This document shows positions 5,389 to 17,039 of a DNA stretch of 32,807 nucleotides, in pieces. This DNA is from Clostridia bacterium (GTDB lineage Bacteria; Bacillota; Clostridia; HGM11514): contig JAZNAU010000053.1 of the NCBI GenBank assembly GCA_045586685.1, positions 1 through 32,807 of the forward strand, written 5' to 3'. A model generated the notes under the pieces. It was not told the origin of the DNA, ran no database searches, and saw nothing but the letters and a program-made list of their open reading frames with translations. The translations under genes and the position numbers were made by a program. Numbering within the stretch: the first letter of the stretch is position 1; each line of letters starts with the position of its first letter.

Positions 5389-6237
5389 ATGAATCTGAAG
5401 GGAAACAAGAACAAGACTGTTTTGGAGTATTGTTTCATTACCGCCGGCGTTTTTATTATGGCGTTGGGACTGAACCTGTTTTTGATTCCCCGTAAAATTT
5501 CAACGGGCGGGGTCAGCGGTTTGGCAATGGTACTTCATCATCTGACGGGGTTGGGAACGGGCTGGTTTGTACTGTTGCTGAATATTCCCTTGTTTTTATA
5601 CGGATATGGACGGTTGGGAAGGAACTTTGTGCTTCGTTCCGGATTGGCAACGGCCTTGTTGTCCTTGTTTTTAGAATTAACCGCAACCCTTGCTCCTGCC
5701 ACGGAGGACGGTCTCCTTTCCGCTCTTTACGGAGGGCTGTTGGCAGGAGGTGGTATGGGATTGGTGTTTCGCTGTGATGCATCAACAGGAGGAACCGATT
5801 TAATTGCTATGGGACTTCGCCGAAAAAGTGCGTTTAGCATAGGTACCTTGGTCATGTTGCTTGATGCTTGTATTGTACTGCTGTCAGTTGTGGTTTTTTG
5901 GGATATTTCTCTGGGGCTTTATGCTCTTGTGGCACTGGCAGTAGGAGGCAAGGTGGTGGATTATCTGGAGGAAGGACCCAAACTTGCCCGTGCGGTGTTT
6001 ATTATTTCGGACAAGCAAAAAGAGATTGCTCAAAAATTATTATATGAAATGAAGCGCGGTGTGACGGCGCTTGACGGGGCCGGAATGTTTTCCGGGAACC
6101 AAAAACAGGTTTTGCTTTGCGTGATTCCCAAACGGGAGGTTATGCATATGAAACATATTGTACAACAAACCGATCCAAAAGCCTTTGTGATTATTACCGA
6201 TGCAAAGGAGGTTTTGGGAGAAGGGTTTCAAGAATAA
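5389..6237 (+). CDS. YitT family membrane protein
   Basis: TGGVSG, NIPLF, STGGTD, RGVT, DPKAFV..EVLGEGF motifs. Confidence 0.93.
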   Translation: MNLKGNKNKTVLEYCFITAGVFIMALGLNLFLIPRKISTGGVSGLAMVLHHLTGLGTGWFVLLLNIPLFLYGYGRLGRNFVLRSGLATALLSLFLELTATLAPATEDGLLSALYGGLLAGGGMGLVFRCDASTGGTDLIAMGLRRKSAFSIGTLVMLLDACIVLLSVVVFWDISLGLYALVALAVGGKVVDYLEEGPKLARAVFIISDKQKEIAQKLLYEMKRGVTALDGAGMFSGNQKQVLLCVIPKREVMHMKHIVQQTDPKAFVIITDAKEVLGEGFQE

Positions 6238-6249
6238 GGAGGTATTGTT

Positions 6250-7071
6250 ATGGATTGCAGTAAGATTGCAACCAAAATCCGCAAGCACATAGTAGAAGGG
6301 GTTTATCAGGCAGCATCCGGTCATCCGGGTGGTTCCCTGTCTATTGCTGATATTCTTACGGTGCTGTATTTTGAAGAAATGAAGGTAGATCCAAAAAATC
6401 CAAAATGGGAAGGTCGGGACCGTTTCGTTTTGTCCAAGGGGCATTGTGCACCCGCCCTTTACGGTGCATTGGCAGAGCGGGGATTTTTTCCTGCAGAAGA
6501 TGTGAAAACGCTTCGTAAGACGGGCAGTTACTTACAGGGCCATCCTGATATGAAGGGTGTGCCCGGTGTGGATATGTCCACAGGGTCTTTAGGACAAGGA
6601 ATCTGTGCTGCTAACGGCATGGCATTGGCGGCAAAGCTGGACAATAAAAGCTACCGTGTGTACAGCATTTTAGGGGACGGCGAGCTGGAAGAAGGTCAGG
6701 TATGGGAGGCGGCCATGTTTGCTTCTCACTACAAGCTTGACAATCTTTGTGCGTTTGTAGATTTGAATGGTCTGCAGATTGACGGAAAAACAGAAGATGT
6801 GATGTCGCCCAACCCCGTTGATGAAAAGTTCAAGGCATTTGGTTGGAATGTCATTTGCATTGATGCTCACGATTTTGACCAGATTCGGTCTGCTCTGGCA
6901 GAGGCGAGAGAGGTCAAGGGAAAACCTACCATGATTGTTGCAAAGAGCATCAAGGGAAAAGGTGTTTCCTTTATGGAAAATCAAGTAGGCTGGCATGGTA
7001 CTGCACCCAAGAAGGAAGAATACGAACAGGCGATGAAGGAATTGAATGCCGCCTTGGAAGGAGGAAATTAA
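6250..7071 (+). CDS. tktA: Transketolase, N-terminal (TPP-binding) subunit
   Basis: SGHPGGSLS, RDRFVLSKGH, LQGHP, STGSLGQG, GDGELEEGQVWEA. Confidence 0.96.
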   Translation: MDCSKIATKIRKHIVEGVYQAASGHPGGSLSIADILTVLYFEEMKVDPKNPKWEGRDRFVLSKGHCAPALYGALAERGFFPAEDVKTLRKTGSYLQGHPDMKGVPGVDMSTGSLGQGICAANGMALAAKLDNKSYRVYSILGDGELEEGQVWEAAMFASHYKLDNLCAFVDLNGLQIDGKTEDVMSPNPVDEKFKAFGWNVICIDAHDFDQIRSALAEAREVKGKPTMIVAKSIKGKGVSFMENQVGWHGTAPKKEEYEQAMKELNAALEGGN

Positions 7072-7072
7072 G

Positions 7073-8014
7073 ATGTCCGAAAAAATTGCAACCAGACAAG
7101 CATATGGAAATGCTTTGGCAGAATTCGGTGCTGACCCGAACATTATCGTAATGGATGCGGATCTTTCCAAATCCACCAATACGGCAACCTTCAAAAAACA
7201 GTATCCCGAACGATTTATCAATGCAGGAATTGCAGAAGCAAGTATGATGACGACAGCTGCCGGCTTGGCAGCCAGCGGGAAAACGGTGTTTGCAAGCTCT
7301 TTTGCCATGTTTGCTGCAGGGAGAGCCTTTGAACAGGTGAGAAATTCCATTGCCTATCCGCAGTTAAATGTAAAAATTGGAGCAACTCATGCGGGAATTA
7401 CGATAGGGGAAGACGGCGCAAGCCATCAGTGTTTAGAGGATATCGCTCTTATGCGTGCCCTTCCCGGAATGGTGATTTTAAATCCTGCGGATGCCACGGA
7501 AACCAGAGCGGCAGTCAAAGCAGCAATCGAGCATCAAGGACCTGTTTACTTAAGATTAGGACGTTTGGCCCTTCCCCAACTGTTTGATCAGGACCCCAAC
7601 TACAAATTTGAATTGGGCAAGGGAATTACACTATCCGACGGTTCTGACGTTACCATCATTGCCACCGGTCTTATGGTATTTGAAGCACTACAGGCTGCGG
7701 AATTGTTGAAGGAACAGGGTGTCAGTGCAAGAGTGATTAACATTCATACCATTAAGCCTTTGGATACCGAATTGATTGTAAAAGCGGCAAAGGAAACAGG
7801 CTGTATTGTGACAGCTGAAGAACATAATGTCATTGGCGGATTGGGCAGTGCGGTTGCGGAAGCTTTGTCGGAAAACTTTCCTGTTCCCATGAAACGGATT
7901 GGAGTTCAGGATGAGTTTGGCTGTTCGGGAAAAGCTACGGAACTGTTGGAACTGTATCATATGACAGCCAAGGATATTGCGGCAGCTGCTTTGGATGTGA
8001 AAGCAAAAAAATGA
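7073..8014 (+). CDS. tktB: Transketolase, C-terminal subunit
   Basis: DADLSKST, GIAEA, GEDGASHQ, EEHNVIGGLG; start moved to ATG 7073 after AGGAGG. Confidence 0.95.
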   Translation: MSEKIATRQAYGNALAEFGADPNIIVMDADLSKSTNTATFKKQYPERFINAGIAEASMMTTAAGLAASGKTVFASSFAMFAAGRAFEQVRNSIAYPQLNVKIGATHAGITIGEDGASHQCLEDIALMRALPGMVILNPADATETRAAVKAAIEHQGPVYLRLGRLALPQLFDQDPNYKFELGKGITLSDGSDVTIIATGLMVFEALQAAELLKEQGVSARVINIHTIKPLDTELIVKAAKETGCIVTAEEHNVIGGLGSAVAEALSENFPVPMKRIGVQDEFGCSGKATELLELYHMTAKDIAAAALDVKAKK

Positions 8015-11499: not shown

Positions 11500-13200
11500 A
11501 TGAACAAAAAAATTTTATGCCTATGGTTAGCGGTAGTTATGGTGTTCCAGCTTGGAACAGCAGCATTTGCAGCAGATTTTTTTGAAAGTGTGGACACAAC
11601 TGCGAAAATGCAAATTGCAACAACCGAGGAAGGAATTAAAGAGTCCACAGGAAGCTCTGTCACTGTTACAAAAAAGGATTCTGATCCATTCCCTAAATTT
11701 GATTATCTTTGTACATTGAATATGGAGAATGTACGGAATAAATTTACAGAGTATTATACCAACTGGCAGAGCTTGTTAGGATATACAAATAACGATCCTG
11801 TGAAACTGGCAGAACTGAATGAAAGATTGGAAAATCTGCAGATTACAGGGGAATTTACCATTGAAATTACATATCCTAAATCCTTTGCTGTTCCAGCAGA
11901 ATTTTTAGAAAACGGTAATATGGCTGGATTTGATGACAATGCCAAGTTGATTTTTGGTAATGATGTCCGTGTTCTTGCGGAAGGAGAAACCGAAAATACC
12001 ATTACCATTACCGTTGATGTGGTTGGTAAGGAAAACGAAGGCACTCGCCCCGGATATGTTGTAGCAAAGGATTTGAATGATAATTTGAGCACCTACTTAA
12101 GTGACTTGACTTTAACCTGTATCGGTGCTCAGAGTTCAGAATACGGTACGTTTATGGTAACCGGTAAAATGACAGGATTTACTCTTGTGGAAAGCGGTTC
12201 TGTTGCGCTGAAGGTGGATTATCAGACAAACCCCGAAAAAGCAGTTGCTTATTGTACCATACTCAGAAAAGGAACTAGTACCGGTAGCGCAGATAAAGAT
12301 TACACCATTACATTTGATGTAGACGGCAATAAAGAAGTGATTGAACCTATTGATAAGGAAGCCAATGGAATCCTTAAAGTGGAAGAGTTGAAGATTCCCT
12401 ATAAAGACGGACACACCTTTGAAGGATGGTATACCGATAAGGAACTGACAAAAAAAGTAACGGATGATATAAAGATTACAAAGGATATTACCTTATATGC
12501 AAAATGGAAAAAAGCAGACAGTGCTGATAAACTGGATGCTGAGAACCACTATGCTTATATTGTAGGGTATCCGGAAGGTGATGTAAGACCGGAAAATCAT
12601 ATTGACCGTGAAGAAATTACAACCGTATTCTTCCGTCTCCTTCTTGATGAAGAAAGAGATCCGATCTACTGTAAAGAAAACAGCTTTACCGATGTTGAAG
12701 CAGGCCGTTGGTCCAATAATGCTATTTCTACCATGCAAAACGGTGGATTTGTATCTGGATATGAGGATGGCACCTTCCGTCCTGATGAATACATCACAAG
12801 AGCAGAGTTTGCTACCATCGCATCTCATATGGATGCCATGAACGAAAATGCAACCCATAACTTTAGTGATGTTGCAGGTCACTGGGCAGAAAAATATATT
12901 GCCGATGCAGTATCCAAGGGCTGGATTGCGGGCTACGAAGATGGTACCTTCCGTCCTGATGACTATATTACAAGAGCAGAAGCGATGACTATTATTAACA
13001 GAATGTTGCTCCGTTTTGTTAATGCAGAAGGCTTACATGCAGATGCAATTAAATGGCCTGATAACTCTGTGAACGAGTGGTATTACTACGCCGTTGAAGA
13101 AGCTACCAACTCTCATAATTACGAAAGACAGGCAGACGGTGTGTACGAAACATGGACTGAACTGACTCCCAACAGAAATTGGTTGGAGTTGGAACGGTAA
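11500..13200 (+). CDS. Secreted S-layer homology (SLH) domain protein with an InlB B-repeat-like domain
   Basis: Signal peptide ending AAFA; FEGWYTD..ITLYAKW repeat; three SLH motifs (GYPEGDVRP, GYEDGTFRPD twice, ITRAE). Confidence 0.9.
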   Translation: MNKKILCLWLAVVMVFQLGTAAFAADFFESVDTTAKMQIATTEEGIKESTGSSVTVTKKDSDPFPKFDYLCTLNMENVRNKFTEYYTNWQSLLGYTNNDPVKLAELNERLENLQITGEFTIEITYPKSFAVPAEFLENGNMAGFDDNAKLIFGNDVRVLAEGETENTITITVDVVGKENEGTRPGYVVAKDLNDNLSTYLSDLTLTCIGAQSSEYGTFMVTGKMTGFTLVESGSVALKVDYQTNPEKAVAYCTILRKGTSTGSADKDYTITFDVDGNKEVIEPIDKEANGILKVEELKIPYKDGHTFEGWYTDKELTKKVTDDIKITKDITLYAKWKKADSADKLDAENHYAYIVGYPEGDVRPENHIDREEITTVFFRLLLDEERDPIYCKENSFTDVEAGRWSNNAISTMQNGGFVSGYEDGTFRPDEYITRAEFATIASHMDAMNENATHNFSDVAGHWAEKYIADAVSKGWIAGYEDGTFRPDDYITRAEAMTIINRMLLRFVNAEGLHADAIKWPDNSVNEWYYYAVEEATNSHNYERQADGVYETWTELTPNRNWLELER

Positions 13201-13236
13201 GGAATCCATATCGAAATACAAACAGGAAATAGTAGC

Positions 13237-13283
13237 AACCGCAAGGAAAACAAAATTGTTTCCTTGCGGTTACTTGCTTTTAT
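13237..13283 (+). terminator. Intrinsic terminator after the SLH gene
   Basis: 13-bp stem AACCGCAAGGAAA / TTTCCTTGCGGTT followed by T-rich sequence. Confidence 0.7.
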
Positions 13284-13308
13284 ATTGAAGAAAAGGGAGT
13301 CGACCTCC

Positions 13309-14262
13309 ATGAATCAAGCATTATTGGATTTGTTGCAGGAATCTGCAGAATTTTGCTCCGGTAAGACAATCAGCAGTTGCTTAAGTATGAGCCAAATGGC
13401 AGTGTGGAAGGAAATTAGAAAACTAAAGAACACGGGCTATGACATTCAGGTCCGCCCCCGCATGGGATACCGTCTGAAAAAAGGATATCTAAATCCTTCT
13501 GTCATTTCCGTTCTTTTAAAGACGAAAAAGAAGATTTTTGCCACCGCCTGTATCTCTTCTACCAATGATTGGGCGGCAAGTATGAGCGGGAAAACGGAGG
13601 AGGGAAGCCTTTTTTTGGCAGAGCGACAAACCAAAGGGCGTGGCAGACAGGGGAGACAATGGGAATCTCCCTTTGGAGAAGGATTGTTTTTGTCTGTTTT
13701 GGAATATCCTGATTTACCTCCTTGTCAGGTGATGAAGCTTACCTTATGTGCGGGAATGGCGGTCTGTAAAGGGATTGAGGATGTGACGGGACTGTCTCCT
13801 CAAATCAAGTGGCCCAATGATATTGTGCTGGAAGGAAAGAAAGTGAGCGGGATTTTAGCGGAAATGAGGACGGATGCAGAACGGATGGTTCATGTGGTGA
13901 TTGGTATTGGAGTGAATGTAAATCAGACCAAATTTTCAAAAGAATTAAATGAAATTGCCACTTCGTTAAAACTTATAACAGGAAAAGAATGGGACAAAAA
14001 TTATCTTGTTGCTGCGATTTGTAATCGAATAGCGGAATATGAAGAAATGTTACGGAACAACTGTTTTCCTATGGAGGAGTATAGGAAACGTTGCGTGACC
14101 TTAGGTTGTGAAGTTCGTGTTATAAGGGTAGATTCGGAATACTCCGCAAAAGCCTTGACGGTTACGGAAGACGGAGGATTGGTGGTGCTATTGCCTGATG
14201 GAACACAGAAAAAGGTTACCTCGGGAGAGGTGTCTGTTCGGGGGTTGTTTGGATATGTATGA
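13309..14262 (+). CDS. birA: Bifunctional biotin-protein ligase/repressor
   Basis: N-terminal HTH (SG..IS..L.MSQMAVWKEI), STND, QTKGRGRQGRQW, KWPND, KVSGIL, SGEVS; start moved to ATG 13309. Confidence 0.95.
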   Translation: MNQALLDLLQESAEFCSGKTISSCLSMSQMAVWKEIRKLKNTGYDIQVRPRMGYRLKKGYLNPSVISVLLKTKKKIFATACISSTNDWAASMSGKTEEGSLFLAERQTKGRGRQGRQWESPFGEGLFLSVLEYPDLPPCQVMKLTLCAGMAVCKGIEDVTGLSPQIKWPNDIVLEGKKVSGILAEMRTDAERMVHVVIGIGVNVNQTKFSKELNEIATSLKLITGKEWDKNYLVAAICNRIAEYEEMLRNNCFPMEEYRKRCVTLGCEVRVIRVDSEYSAKALTVTEDGGLVVLLPDGTQKKVTSGEVSVRGLFGYV

Positions 14263-14289
14263 TTCATTTAGGGTCAGACGTTTTTTGTC

Positions 14290-14318
14290 TTGACAGATGG
14301 AAGAAAAAGGAGTATAAT
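14290..14318 (+). promoter_or_regulatory. Consensus sigma-A promoter of the RAYT-like gene
   Basis: TTGACA(14290)-N17-TATAAT(14313); the ORF-track start codon is actually this -35 box. Confidence 0.85.
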
Positions 14319-14349
14319 AAAGGTAAGTCTTAAAAAAGGAGTGGTTTTT

Positions 14350-15105
14350 TTGAGCAGACCGGTAAGAGAAATCAGCCCTACGGGAATGTATCATATTGTG
14401 GTTCGTGGATTGGACGGATTACAATTATTTGGTGAGCCCATAGAGTTTGATTATTTCCTGAAACAGTTAGAGCAGGTGTCAGAGGGATTTCGGGTGTATG
14501 CCTATTGCTTGCTTTCCAATGAAATTCAGTTGTTTGTTCGGGAATCGGAAGAAGGAATGGTGCCTGAAATGATGCGTCGTTTGTTGACCCGTTATGCGGG
14601 CTGGTATAACAGAAAGCATCAACGTCGCGGAAGTGTGACGGAGGGACGTTACCAATGTGCTCCTGTTGCGGTTGGGGATGAGTCCAGTCTGATTCGATCC
14701 ATTCATCAACTGTCTGGAGATTGCTTTGGCTATGCTTACAGTAGTTTTCATTCTTATCAAGAGGGACAACAACGGTATCTTTCAACTTGGTTTGAAGGGG
14801 ATGTGATTGCCTTTCACCGTCAGTCAGAAAATCGTGATTTTACCATCCGTCCCAGTGGAAAACTGACAGACCATCAGGTGAAGGAACAGGTGGAGCTGTT
14901 TTGTAATGAACGGGGGATTTCGGATTGGAACCGTCTTTCCAAAGAGGACAGAGATTTGGCTTTGCGTGATTTAAGAGAACGGTTTTCTATCGGTCAGTTG
15001 CAGACTGCTACGGGAATATCGAGAGGAATTATTGCCAGATGTACCCGACAAAAGCAGGAGCAGATACGAAACAATCCTCGTCAGATGGAATCCTTCTTGC
15101 TGTAG
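14350..15105 (+). CDS. REP-associated tyrosine transposase (RAYT, Y1 HUH)-like protein with catalytic residues substituted
   Basis: TTG start after AAGGAG. MSRPVR..S.TG.YHI.VRG, AYCLL.N, YA.WYNRKH.R.G and a C-terminal HTH (SI.QL..ATGISRGII) match RAYTs, but NHxH reads NEIQ and RYIHQNP reads RSIHQLS. Confidence 0.8.
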   Translation: MSRPVREISPTGMYHIVVRGLDGLQLFGEPIEFDYFLKQLEQVSEGFRVYAYCLLSNEIQLFVRESEEGMVPEMMRRLLTRYAGWYNRKHQRRGSVTEGRYQCAPVAVGDESSLIRSIHQLSGDCFGYAYSSFHSYQEGQQRYLSTWFEGDVIAFHRQSENRDFTIRPSGKLTDHQVKEQVELFCNERGISDWNRLSKEDRDLALRDLRERFSIGQLQTATGISRGIIARCTRQKQEQIRNNPRQMESFLL

Positions 15106-15159
15106 TTTAATCGGTAAAGGAGGAACGGTTTTTTCACAGCCGACAGAAGGGATGATAAC

Positions 15160-15999
15160 ATGAAGGGGCTGATTTTAGAAGGCGGTGCCATGCGAGGCAT
15201 GTTTACCGCAGGGGTCATTGATGTTATGCTGGAGCATGAAATTGAATATGACGGTGTGGTTGGAGTTTCTGCGGGTGCGGCATTTGGCTGTAACTATAAA
15301 TCCAAGCAGATTGGCAGAGCGATTCGCTACAATAAGCGGTTTTGCAAAGACCCTCGGTATTGCAGTATTCGTTCTTTGATTCGTACGGGAGATTTATATG
15401 GTGCAGATTTTTGTTACCGTGAGCTTCCCGAAAGCTTAGATGTGTTTGACAACGAAACCTTCAATGCCAACCCCTTAAAATTCTATGCCGTATCCACCAA
15501 TGTGGACACGGGGAAACCGTTTTATTATTTATGCGAGGATGGGCAAAAATGCTTACCTTATCTTCGGGGGTCCGCATCTATGCCTTTGGTATCCCGAGTG
15601 GTGGAGATTGATGGTTTGAGACTGTTGGACGGAGGTATTGCAGATCCTGTTCCTTTGACGTTTTTTGAAAGACAGGGATATGAAAAAAATGTCATTGTCC
15701 TGACTCAGCCAAAGGAATACAGAAAAAGAAAAGAAACATTACTTCCGTTGATGAAAGTAACCATGAAACGGTATCCTAAAATAGTAGAGGTTATGGGAAA
15801 ACGGCATGAGGAATATAATAAAGTCGTTGAAGAGATTAACCGCAAAGAAGAAGGGGGCGAGGTTTTTGTGATTCGACCCTTGCAAAAACTGAATGTAGGA
15901 CGGATTGAACACAATCCCCATAAACTCCAGAAGGCGTATGACATGGGCAGAAGCACCATGCTATCACGTATGGAGGAGTTAAAGAGCTATTTGAATTGA
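15160..15999 (+). CDS. Patatin-like phospholipase family protein
   Basis: LEGGAMRG, GVSAGA, SASMP, DGG motifs. Confidence 0.93.
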   Translation: MKGLILEGGAMRGMFTAGVIDVMLEHEIEYDGVVGVSAGAAFGCNYKSKQIGRAIRYNKRFCKDPRYCSIRSLIRTGDLYGADFCYRELPESLDVFDNETFNANPLKFYAVSTNVDTGKPFYYLCEDGQKCLPYLRGSASMPLVSRVVEIDGLRLLDGGIADPVPLTFFERQGYEKNVIVLTQPKEYRKRKETLLPLMKVTMKRYPKIVEVMGKRHEEYNKVVEEINRKEEGGEVFVIRPLQKLNVGRIEHNPHKLQKAYDMGRSTMLSRMEELKSYLN

Positions 16000-16031
16000 A
16001 AAAAAGGCTCCCGATTGAGGGAAGCCTTTTT
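15999..16031. terminator. Bidirectional intrinsic terminator
   Basis: AAAAAGGCTCCC..GGGAAGCCTTTTT between convergent genes. Confidence 0.8.
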
Positions 16032-16035
16032 CTGT

Positions 16036-16239
16036 TTAGTTTCCAGCTAAATAATTGTTGATTTTTGTAATCAACTGGTTAACGTCTGCTCCGTGAATGG
16101 CACAAGCATCCTCGATGCTTTCCCCGCTGGCGGAAGGACAGCCTAAGCAGTGCATTCCGATTTCTAAGAAAAATTCAGCGGTGCCGGGATCCAATGCCAG
16201 AACATCAGCAATAATCATATCTTTTGTTACAGTTGTCAT
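16036..16239 (-). CDS. DUF1858 domain protein
   Basis: VTKDMII, GMHCLGCPSASGESIEDAC..HG; start at ATG 16239 after GAGG. Confidence 0.9.
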   Translation of the reverse strand: MTTVTKDMIIADVLALDPGTAEFFLEIGMHCLGCPSASGESIEDACAIHGADVNQLITKINNYLAGN

Positions 16240-16310
16240 AATAAATACCTCTTTCTGCCCTGAAAGTAAATTGTTTTCCGACAAGGGCAAGCCGGAATTT
16301 GTACAACATT

Positions 16311-16339
16311 ATTATACACTATTTTTTTCTCTTTTGCAA
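16311..16339 (-). promoter_or_regulatory. sigma-A promoter of the DUF1858 gene
   Basis: TTGCAA-N17-TATAAT on the minus strand. Confidence 0.7.
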
Positions 16340-16349
16340 GAAAAATTTA

Positions 16350-17039
16350 TCATTCTAAAAATCCCCGTAGTTTTTCTACCGTTCTGATGGGTGCGTCCTT
16401 GGAGTTTCCCCAGGGAAGGGATTCGTTTTTGTAATCAAATTTTTGAGTAAACCAGTGAATTTCTTCTTTTATTCTTGCCATCTCTCTTTTTTCTATGGTA
16501 ATTATCTGATTGCAAAATTCATTTGCTTCTTTTTTTGATAAGAATTTTGCGGATTCTTTCAATAATCGATTGAAGTGAGGCAGACAAAAGCCTTTGCAGT
16601 TGTTAAATTTCTTGGAAAATTCAGGGTTTTTCTTCCACATATAGAAAATGACATCCATATATTTGTTCATCACAAATTTTATTTTGTCACAAGCAACACA
16701 GGTTTTTTCTGTCTGTTCCAGTTCTTTTTTGATTGTCTCTGTTTGGGGTGATTTGGAAAGTAGGGTGGTTTTGTTTAAAATTTCGTTTAGAGTATCTATG
16801 TGTGTGTCCAAAACCAATGCCAAAGGCAATTTGTTTTGTGCATCAAAAAGCAGTCGGTAATGATGGGCACAAAATCCTTTTTTGTTGGTCTTAATCCGAA
16901 AATCAGGTTCCATCATGGCGGGACCCAACACAAATTCTACGGTGTTTTTTTCCAAATTCCGTTCCAACACACAGACAGGACATTCGCAATCCCGGTCAAA
17001 GGCTTCGTTGACGGGAATTTCATAAATTTTTTCCTTCAT
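16350..17039 (-). CDS. DUF6062 family protein (Cys/His-rich, probable metal binding)
   Basis: MKEKIYEIPVNEAF..CECPVC, GFC.HH, C..C, GFCLPHF; start at ATG 17039 after AAGGA. Confidence 0.8.
   Translation of the reverse strand: MKEKIYEIPVNEAFDRDCECPVCVLERNLEKNTVEFVLGPAMMEPDFRIKTNKKGFCAHHYRLLFDAQNKLPLALVLDTHIDTLNEILNKTTLLSKSPQTETIKKELEQTEKTCVACDKIKFVMNKYMDVIFYMWKKNPEFSKKFNNCKGFCLPHFNRLLKESAKFLSKKEANEFCNQIITIEKREMARIKEEIHWFTQKFDYKNESLPWGNSKDAPIRTVEKLRGFLE

Follow-up and report, generated by a model that had tools for sequence, protein, structure and literature searches.

A conserved Y1 transposase relative without its catalytic residues in Clostridia, probably exapted as a DNA-binding protein

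The closest described relatives of the gene reported here are the TIRYT or 'TIRtron' transposases (Di Nocera et al. 2013, PMC3733652), which are the same as TnpA-Y1 subclass 2.1 according to Quentin et al. (2018, PMC6006769). In the available text of the former paper, the HUH metal-binding motif and the nucleophilic tyrosine are conserved in all TIRYTs of the set, and in the available text of the latter, sequences lacking the motifs were removed as presumed non-functional. The best structural reference is the RAYT protein TnpA-REP of E. coli, which, in the accessible parts of the report of Messing et al. (2012, PMC3479197), binds hairpins with its Y1 fold, as does IS608 TnpA, and plugs its own active site with a C-terminal extension. 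No discussion of catalytic loss was found in the available part of Bertels et al. (2017), and no description of a conserved HUH-less or Tyr-less RAYT/TIRYT clade was found in a literature search beyond whose reach lay subscription journals and supplements, including those to PMC3733652 (Additional file 5) and PMC6006769 (alignments). Here we describe such a protein, P0001, which is encoded in a 32,807-nt stretch of the genome of an uncultured, commensal-type Clostridia bacterium from gut or rumen (GCA_045586685.1, contig JAZNAU010000053.1, positions 1 to 32,807; 'the window' in the following). Its gene is most probably (at about 60%) an exapted, immobilised descendant of a Y1 (HUH) transposase that was flanked by terminal inverted repeats (TIRs) and was of the TIRYT/TnpA-Y1 subclass 2.1 type, and its product would act as a DNA-binding protein. 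This reading is based on sequence comparison and predicted structure, and the coordinates of the features involved are collected in Table 1.

Identity, fold and catalytic residues

P0001 is only weakly recognized by family profiles. The Pfam profile Y1_Tnp (PF01797), which has a cut-off of 23 bits, gave it a score of 12.5 (E 0.17), an NCBIfam search with the protein gave no match, and the relatives P0014, P0015 and P0027 scored 38–68 bits against NF047646, for which the cut-off is 80. A phmmer search of the PDB sequences with P0001 found nothing relevant (a chance match to ZntR, E 0.59), and PADLOC reported nothing for P0001, P0016 and P0014 and, for P0076, weak matches in the helix-turn-helix (HTH) region only. 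Because the protein's own Pfam match is weak, the evidence that it is a RAYT comes from homologues, from the match of a family profile and from the fold predicted for it. A word-indexed search collected 25 proteins, comprising P0001 itself, 12 relatives at 54–86% identity, all without Pfam annotation, and 12 at 25–36% identity, 11 of which carry PF01797. An exhaustive search of representative proteins returned 7,317 matches at E ≤ 0.001 (734 at ≤ 1e-10 and four at ≤ 1e-30), of which the best 150 were examined further. A profile built from 25 members of the family matched E. coli TnpA-REP (4er8) with an E-value of 1.2e-5.

The AlphaFold2 model of P0001, which was built from 128 aligned sequences, has a mean predicted local distance difference test (pLDDT) score of 92.1. 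The top PDB match in Foldseek was 4er8_A (E 3.6e-6, template modelling score 0.73 on the target), followed by the IS200, ISDra2 and IS608 transposases. This was in agreement with VIA-align, in which residues 1–166 of the model superimposed on 4er8_A with a Z-score of 17.1 and a root mean square deviation of 2.6 Å (149 of 165 residues aligned), with the next fold at Z 10.1. The comparison with TnpA-REP, which the first-pass annotation of the window had proposed as a check, therefore gave a fold match; the alignment behind the model included HUH-intact relatives, so this match confirms homology but also depends on it.

The Y1 core is followed by a block that is invariant in the close relatives and not conserved outside them, an HTH region, a hypervariable linker and a short invariant tail. 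Matches of the relatives to HTH families in Pfam are weak (HTH_5, with a cut-off of 22 bits, scores 24.1 in P0016). A C-terminal motif, TGISRGxIxR, is common to P0001 and to PF01797 proteins of approximately 250 residues, to which it is homologous over the full length. With its Y1 core, C-terminal HTH and no REP (repetitive extragenic palindromic) sequences nearby, P0001 is a protein of the TIRYT/TnpA-Y1 subclass 2.1 type.

The residues required for catalysis are replaced throughout the clade that is formed by P0001 and its 12 relatives at 54–86% identity. E-x-Q stands in place of the HUH motif in all 13 members, with both E58 and Q60 invariant, as the first-pass annotation had anticipated for homologues. 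The position of the nucleophile is occupied by Tyr in four members, Phe in two and Ser in seven, and it is surrounded by R116, I118, H119 and Q120, which belong to the 88 invariant columns of an alignment that extends down to 54% identity. In the members with Phe or Ser, the helix after this position is also shorter by six residues. Variation of this kind within an otherwise invariant helix reads, at the level of the alignment, as the signature of a side chain that is no longer needed. The earlier claim that all three catalytic residues are lost is thus correct for the window protein, in which each of them is replaced, but they were not lost together, as the deeper members of the clade retain the Tyr.

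These residues also bear on the possibility that P0001 is still an enzyme, in which E58 and Q60, together with H119 and Q120, would bind a metal ion, Ser117, another residue or water would serve as the nucleophile, and DNA would be nicked or resolved by non-canonical chemistry. All four of the putative ligands are invariant in 13 of 13 members and E-x-Q could in principle still bind metal, the active-site fold is kept in a high-confidence model, and the Tyr retained in 4 of the 13 members and in a sister genus (g3, described below) makes residual or altered chemistry conceivable. Some Rep proteins of the HUH superfamily are active with H-U-Q instead of H-U-H. However, a nucleophile position that alternates among Tyr, Phe and Ser amid invariant neighbors points to a dispensable side chain, Phe is not a nucleophile, and the members with Phe or Ser are those in which the following helix is shortened. 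Other lineages with the same tail have unrelated residues at both His positions (S..N, G..Y, D..Y and K..H), and there is no second element end or target repeat on which an enzyme could act. We therefore consider residual enzymatic activity unlikely.

Selection, synteny and terminal boxes

Selection on the gene was estimated with the Nei–Gojobori method from the five clade loci for which DNA was available, one of which is cut by the end of its contig; the reading frame is intact in all five. The ratio of nonsynonymous to synonymous substitution rates (dN/dS) was 0.11, 0.10 and 0.13 in the three pairs with usable dS values of 0.74–1.2, and deeper pairs were saturated. By region, the ratio was lowest in the Y1 fold (Table 1) and reached 0.10–0.19 in the linker and 0.07–0.15 in the HTH. 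On the same genome pairs it was 0.10–0.12 for birA and 0.10–0.14 for the patatin gene, the two neighbors of the gene in the window, and between the window and locus L024, dN was 0.12 for the dead transposase versus 0.26 for BirA. Purifying selection on the gene is as strong as on its housekeeping neighbors. A scan of metagenome contigs found 11 further family loci, all at 28–43% identity and none from the close clade.

The gene is present as a single copy in its source genome (1.55 Mb, 97% complete), in which its flanks are likewise unrepeated. Within the genus, one copy was found in four of six other genomes, and the two without the gene are 81% and 87% complete; at the level of family and order, exactly one copy is present in 8 of 12 genomes, including five of the five high-quality ones. 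The immediate upstream neighbor is birA in the window, L023 and L025 (54% identity), and the immediate downstream neighbor is the patatin gene in the window and L023 only. The overall GC content and that of third codon positions (GC3) resemble those of the neighbors (0.43 for the GC3 of the gene). In locus L024 (83% identity), birA and the gene are separated by an inserted open reading frame (ORF) of 168 residues (5480-5986), and between the gene and patatin there are two more, of 112 and 256 residues (6775-7896).

The first-pass annotation had suggested exaptation in place of decay and had named a dN/dS ratio below 1 and conserved synteny as checks. The ratio, the birA adjacency and promoter that are kept down to 54% identity, the shared E-x-Q and the TnpA-REP fold all bear this out. 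A decaying transposase pseudogene that is still open by chance would account for the loss of the catalytic residues and for Pfam and NCBIfam scores below the cut-offs, but not for the low dN/dS at dS values of 0.7–1.2, five intact frames (one of them partial), 88 invariant columns, a conserved promoter and evolution slower than that of birA. The low dN/dS, single copy, synteny, native composition and invariant columns exclude neutral decay for practical purposes, and we regard the pseudogene explanation as extremely improbable.

Traces of the ancestral element were found upstream of the gene. Family matches at E ≤ 1e-30 are present in 106 of 400 sampled Clostridia genomes, often in several copies. 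Genome G307 has six, and the four that were compared share a 0.9-kb unit at 97–99% identity, with HUH and Tyr intact. The unit is bounded by GGGGACGTGCC at its left end and GGCACGTCCC at its right, and its first six bases fit the GGGGWSAS consensus of Di Nocera et al. In the window, the copy AGGGTCAG at 14270-14277 abuts, together with the following bases, the −35 hexamer of the promoter; the aligned position reads GGGGTCAG in L023 and GGGGACGG in L025. This relic is the positional homologue of a GGGGACG[TG] box that each of the 15 HUH-intact relatives compared carries 49–148 nt before the start. The locus and protein sets used here and below come from searches that were seeded with tail-bearing sequences and contain many close kin, so their counts are not independent: GGGAC[AG] occurs within 150 nt upstream in 15 of 15 HUH-intact and 4 of 8 tail-bearing loci (5% of shuffled flanks) and, inverted, within 120 nt after the stop codon in 9 of 15 and 0 of 8, respectively (shuffled, 2%). 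With the relaxed pattern GGG[AT]C[AG], the corresponding values are 15 of 15 and 6 of 8 upstream (shuffled, 9%) and 10 of 15 and 0 of 8 for the inverted copy downstream (shuffled, 4%). GGGAC[AG] in direct orientation was found downstream in 5 of the 15 HUH-intact loci, one of which has both orientations; the single direct downstream match to the relaxed pattern in the window lies inside the patatin gene and is unlike an element end.

The promoter belongs to the same arrangement. A scan of positions 13200-16400 found four sites, among which only the one at the gene matches the consensus at 12 of 12 positions. TTGAC and TA.AAT, separated by 17 nt, do not vary among the 10 loci that were aligned, which include tail-bearing as well as HUH-intact ones. 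Since it is common to both kinds of loci, the perfect promoter of the window gene is the promoter of the ancestral element and not a new acquisition. The tail-bearing genes are one-ended remnants, in which the left box, promoter and gene were kept and the right end is gone. The statement in the first-pass annotation that the gene lacks both a REP array and insertion sequence ends is thus correct for the REP array, but a degenerate upstream terminal box survives. No REP array or TIRs were detected around the gene, and the palindromes in its flanks do not exceed chance. A search of the window for GGGGACGTGCCT with up to three mismatches gave 18 matches (13.7 expected), a number that was reached in 17 of 100 shuffles.

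Several arrangements were noted at other loci. In L090:1409-2352, one of the G307 copies (the others are in L109, L110 and L111), the right end is tandemly duplicated as a 37-nt repeat. In the HUH-intact loci L033 and L035, the boxes that flank the gene are palindromes without mismatch (GGGGACAGTCCCC and AGGGACAGTCCCT) and are arranged pairwise on either side of it, a layout that looks REP-like rather than like simple TIRs. In L025:3754-3873, directly after the stop codon, a unit of approximately 37 nt (...GCTTCCTGCGGGGCAGAGGAAAGCG[TC]GACGAAAACCC...) is repeated two to three times in tandem.

The retained box and the distribution of active copies bear on a second function, that of an immunity or dominant-negative factor that occupies the ends of incoming active relatives or poisons their transposase. 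In line with such a role, the protein has a box-recognizing architecture and its gene kept one box, and the nine tail-bearing genomes all have one family match and no HUH-intact copy (97 of 391 other Clostridia genomes have at least one). However, these nine genomes represent only three lineages, so that the absence of active copies is not significant, the source genome has no active paralogue of the family, the box of the window has drifted from the active consensus, and strong long-term purifying selection is hard to explain when no target is present. A dominant-negative action on resident active RAYTs, as the first-pass annotation had suggested, is unlikely for the same want of a paralogue, and we judge immunity as a whole to be improbable. 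The only other Y1_Tnp match in the genome is borderline (22.4–23.8 bits against a cut-off of 23) and lies outside the window, at L002:1459-1782 on the minus strand (G000:C13). It is an ORF of 107 residues and of another type, between two unrelated, housekeeping-looking genes, with HUH (H-I-H) and Y-I-D-T-N-P intact and without the N-terminal strands.

The lack of repeats around the gene also concerns a third alternative, in which P0001 would bind RNA or single-stranded DNA hairpins through its Y1 surface and act as a chaperone or regulator without a role at its own promoter. The hairpin binding reported for TnpA-REP and IS608 TnpA and the strong constraint on the Y1 domain, which is the most constrained part of the protein, are consistent with this. 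Against it stand the absence of a hairpin repeat family near the gene or common to the flanks and the conservation of the HTH as well. This explanation seems doubtful to us.

The gene itself corresponds to an open frame listed at 14290..15105, within which TTG at 14350 is the preferred start because AAGGAG precedes it and the relatives share an MSRP N-terminus there (L024 has ATG at the same place). On re-reading, the intact ORF, promoter, ribosome-binding site, neighboring genes, and motif coordinates and residues given in the first-pass annotation were all found to be correct. No terminator was predicted between the gene and patatin, and with a gap of 54 nt the two are possibly co-transcribed. 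On the other side of birA, a strong hairpin at 13234-13274 (16-nt arms, 94% complementary, with a 9-nt loop) lies between the gene of an SLH-domain surface protein (11500-13200) and birA and overlaps the listed TTG start of the latter. This hairpin may serve as a terminator or as an operator for BirA.

Table 1. Coordinates of the gene, its elements and its neighbors in the window
Feature	Position	Strand	Basis and remarks
birA, biotin-protein ligase with N-terminal HTH	13264..14262	+	Pfam: BPL_LplA_LipB, HTH_11, BPL_C; bifunctional type
Remnant of the upstream (left) terminal box of the family, AGGGTCAG then ...TTGTC	14270..14289	+	Abuts the −35 hexamer; candidate operator
Sigma-70/sigma-A type promoter, TTGACA-17-TATAAT	14290..14318	+	12/12 match; −35 at 14290-14295, 17-nt spacer, −10 at 14313-14318
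Ribosome-binding site, AAGGAG	14336..14341	+	8 nt before TTG; direct sequence reading
Coding sequence of P0001, 251 residues and stop	14350..15105	+	Single copy in genome; dN/dS 0.10–0.13 versus two relatives
TnpA-REP-like Y1 fold, residues 1–166	14350..14847	+	AlphaFold2, VIA-align, Foldseek; dN/dS 0.06–0.09 for residues 1–140
E58-I59-Q60 in place of the HUH metal-binding motif	14521..14529	+	Alignment to N-H-[VIF]-H-L of relatives
Ser117 (TCC) in place of the nucleophile Tyr	14698..14700	+	Alignment to R-Y-I-H-Q; flanking R116, I118, H119, Q120 invariant
Clade-specific invariant block DFTIRPSGKLT, residues 163–173, domain boundary	14836..14868	+	13/13 members
C-terminal HTH region, approximately residues 196–232	14935..15045	+	Predicted helices 198–209, 214–221, 225–240
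Hypervariable linker, residues 233–245	15046..15084	+	Clade alignment; pLDDT ~57–64 from residue 241
C-terminal tail M-E-S-F-L-L, residues 246–251	15085..15102	+	Invariant in 13/13
Patatin-like phospholipase gene	15160..15999	+	Pfam; starts 54 nt downstream of the dead-transposase gene

The wider tail-bearing lineage

The C-terminal tail is not confined to the close clade. Among 290 collected proteins, a C-terminal end of the form [FWVMIL]-L-L is found on 32; 31 of these cover the HUH columns, and all 31 lack the HUH pair. None of the 255 HUH-intact proteins has the tail. Only three HUH-less proteins are without it, P0032 and the truncated P0116 and P0124. Both the tail and the residues at the catalytic positions vary among the sub-lineages. 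Proteins ending in ..MQVFLL have S/G-x-N/T in place of HUH and NFIHK as the Tyr motif, those ending in ..E[ED]IWLL have G-I-Y or D-V-Y and a variable Tyr motif, and those ending in ..EAVWLL have E-V-H and VFIHQ. The sister genus g3 (tail ..EE[MV]VLL or ..AEVVLL) has D/F-G-H and keeps the Tyr, and genome G094, which belongs to another family, has the tail ..LSVWLL, K-V-H and Phe in place of Tyr. The coding region of the tail-bearing genes runs approximately 20 codons past the point at which the relatives stop. Internal stops that were flagged in HUH-intact matches as possible pseudogene lesions were rejected as such; they are natural stops, and the query extends beyond them into the tail.

A maximum-likelihood tree of 103 rows was calculated with a quick search, after removal of the last 12 residues of each protein, and rooted on six longer relatives. 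In this tree, all 33 tail-bearing rows fall into one clade of 34 rows, which is nested among HUH-intact forms of 250 residues. The support for this clade is only moderate (86 in the Shimodaira–Hasegawa-like approximate likelihood ratio test), and its one remaining member is the tail-less P0032, which is on a long branch. Under parsimony, the tail requires one change, each of the histidines two and the tyrosine eight. The simplest history that these sequences suggest is that the first His was lost at or near the origin of the tail lineage and that the Tyr was lost several times later. Independent loss of both histidines in each sub-lineage was considered and rejected, because parsimony needs two changes per His versus eight for Tyr.

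The g3 lineage is likewise subject to purifying selection (dN/dS 0.11–0.12) and was examined at the level of gene order. Its homologue is syntenic in three genomes, in which it follows a gene for a protein of 739–753 residues with an N-terminal membrane anchor (L047:4221-6482, L048:5538-7757 and L049:5395-7656). This neighborhood is conserved and unlike the birA context of the window's genus. In four other family members, P0043, P0044, P0221 and P0223, HUH is intact, the Tyr is replaced by Phe, His, Phe and His, respectively, and there is no Leu-Leu tail; these Tyr losses are separate and lie outside the tail-bearing lineage.

Proposed function and comparison with known systems

If the gene was exapted as proposed, its protein would neither cut nor move DNA and would bind DNA through the HTH, the dead Y1 domain or both. 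The most economical target would be the left box that adjoins the −35 hexamer of its own gene, which would result at least in autoregulation. Many transposases autoregulate at their own ends. The variable linker and the acidic-hydrophobic-Leu-Leu tail may together form a short motif that mediates docking to a host partner or degradation, and candidate readers are RNA polymerase, a component of the replisome and a protease adaptor; alternatively, the tail may be read by the protein's own Y1 groove. The window sequence QMESFLL is only loosely similar to the QL[SD]LF-type sliding-clamp consensus (as quoted in the available text of PMC6006769), and a predicted complex between the genome's DnaN and residues 190–251 gave an interaction prediction score from aligned errors (ipSAE) of 0.01 in both runs, which gives no verdict either way.

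In addition to the retained tyrosines, the possible metal binding by E-x-Q, the interdependence of the counts and the limited support for the tail clade mentioned above, several observations weigh against exaptation as a DNA-binding protein. The first concerns the C-terminal domain. When it was modelled alone (AlphaFold2, pLDDT 78), Foldseek found nothing at E ≤ 0.001 (best E 1.5), and in VIA-align the two highest-scoring entries were of the Pex14 type and not HTH proteins (Z 6.2 and 5.9). HTH DNA-binding proteins were found at Z-scores of up to 5.3 (KorB 5.3, Spo0J 5.2 and DnaA domain IV 5.0), together with sigma region 4, and HTH domains account for most of the neighbors at Z 4–5. The match to DnaA domain IV (1j1v) covers 66 residues, and many HTH domains have similar Z-scores; PF08299 (Bac_DnaA_C) has no match in P0001 and was found only in longer relatives of 305–335 residues. 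The structural neighbors of this model are compatible with an HTH but not diagnostic of it. The second concerns the box. In the window it is degenerate (AGGGTCAG) relative to the consensus of active elements, and it is missing from two of the eight tail-bearing loci, L108 and L024; in the latter an ORF is inserted upstream, and neither promoter nor box is recognizable. Variants of the box are not enriched in the source genome (192 observed matches to GGGGWSAS versus 213 expected), in which the 13-mer at the gene is unique. The box could also be a passive remnant that is held in place by the adjacent promoter.

We also propose, more tentatively than the exaptation of the window gene itself, that the tail-bearing HUH-less proteins may represent an unrecognized family of transposase-derived host factors in Clostridia, which would be to TnpA what the TldR regulators are to TnpB. 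Such a family would have originated from a TIRYT that was pinned by the loss of its right end, gained a docking peptide and lost the first His, with the second His and the Tyr decaying repeatedly thereafter. Its members would use the dead Y1 domain together with the HTH to bind the left box at their own promoters, and perhaps the ends of invaders, and the tail would either recruit host machinery or be recognized by it, with a protease, the replisome and RNA polymerase as examples.

The domesticated RAYTs known so far are enzymes that have retained catalytic competence. The lineage described here indicates that sequences discarded as non-functional can form an old, selected and vertically inherited lineage with features of its own, namely a novel C-terminal peptide, the ancestral promoter and the remnant of a single element end. 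It offers a cheap and concrete system for studying the conversion of a bacterial transposase into a DNA-binding factor of its host. Living intermediates allow the order of events to be followed, and loss of the HUH pair combined with a Leu-Leu C-terminus provides a search signature for further cases.

When P0001 is compared with described systems, the Y1 HUH fold is common to it and to the TnpA proteins of the IS200/IS605 group (IS608 and ISDra2; Foldseek E 1e-4 to 1e-3, VIA-align Z 10.1). However, the latter are obligate dimers of approximately 130–155 residues, are present in multiple copies with subterminal hairpins, have no HTH and retain their catalytic residues. TnpA-REP (4er8; Messing et al. 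2012, PMC3479197) is the best structural match and is also a single-copy, domesticated relative of IS200/IS605. As described in the available text of that report, it differs in keeping HUH and Tyr, cutting REP hairpins with Mn2+, being flanked by REPs and having no HTH. The nuclease-dead, TnpB-derived TldR proteins (10.1101/2023.11.30.569447, accessible portion) provide a functional parallel, as they derive from a transposon-encoded nuclease that became catalytically inactive and was retained as a regulator that targets DNA. Their fold is unrelated, they are RNA-guided and their activity was shown experimentally, whereas the window protein is known from sequence evolution only. The closest likeness is to the TIRYTs, as they are presented in the available parts of PMC3733652 and PMC6006769. 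Both have a TnpA-REP-like Y1 core with a C-terminal HTH, no REP array and an upstream G-rich box of the GGGGWSAS type, and the HUH-intact sisters of the window gene carry the box on both sides. The window gene differs from TIRYTs in that it has lost the HUH pair and the Tyr, has the box upstream only, is single-copy and syntenic, and encodes a new, invariant C-terminal tail.

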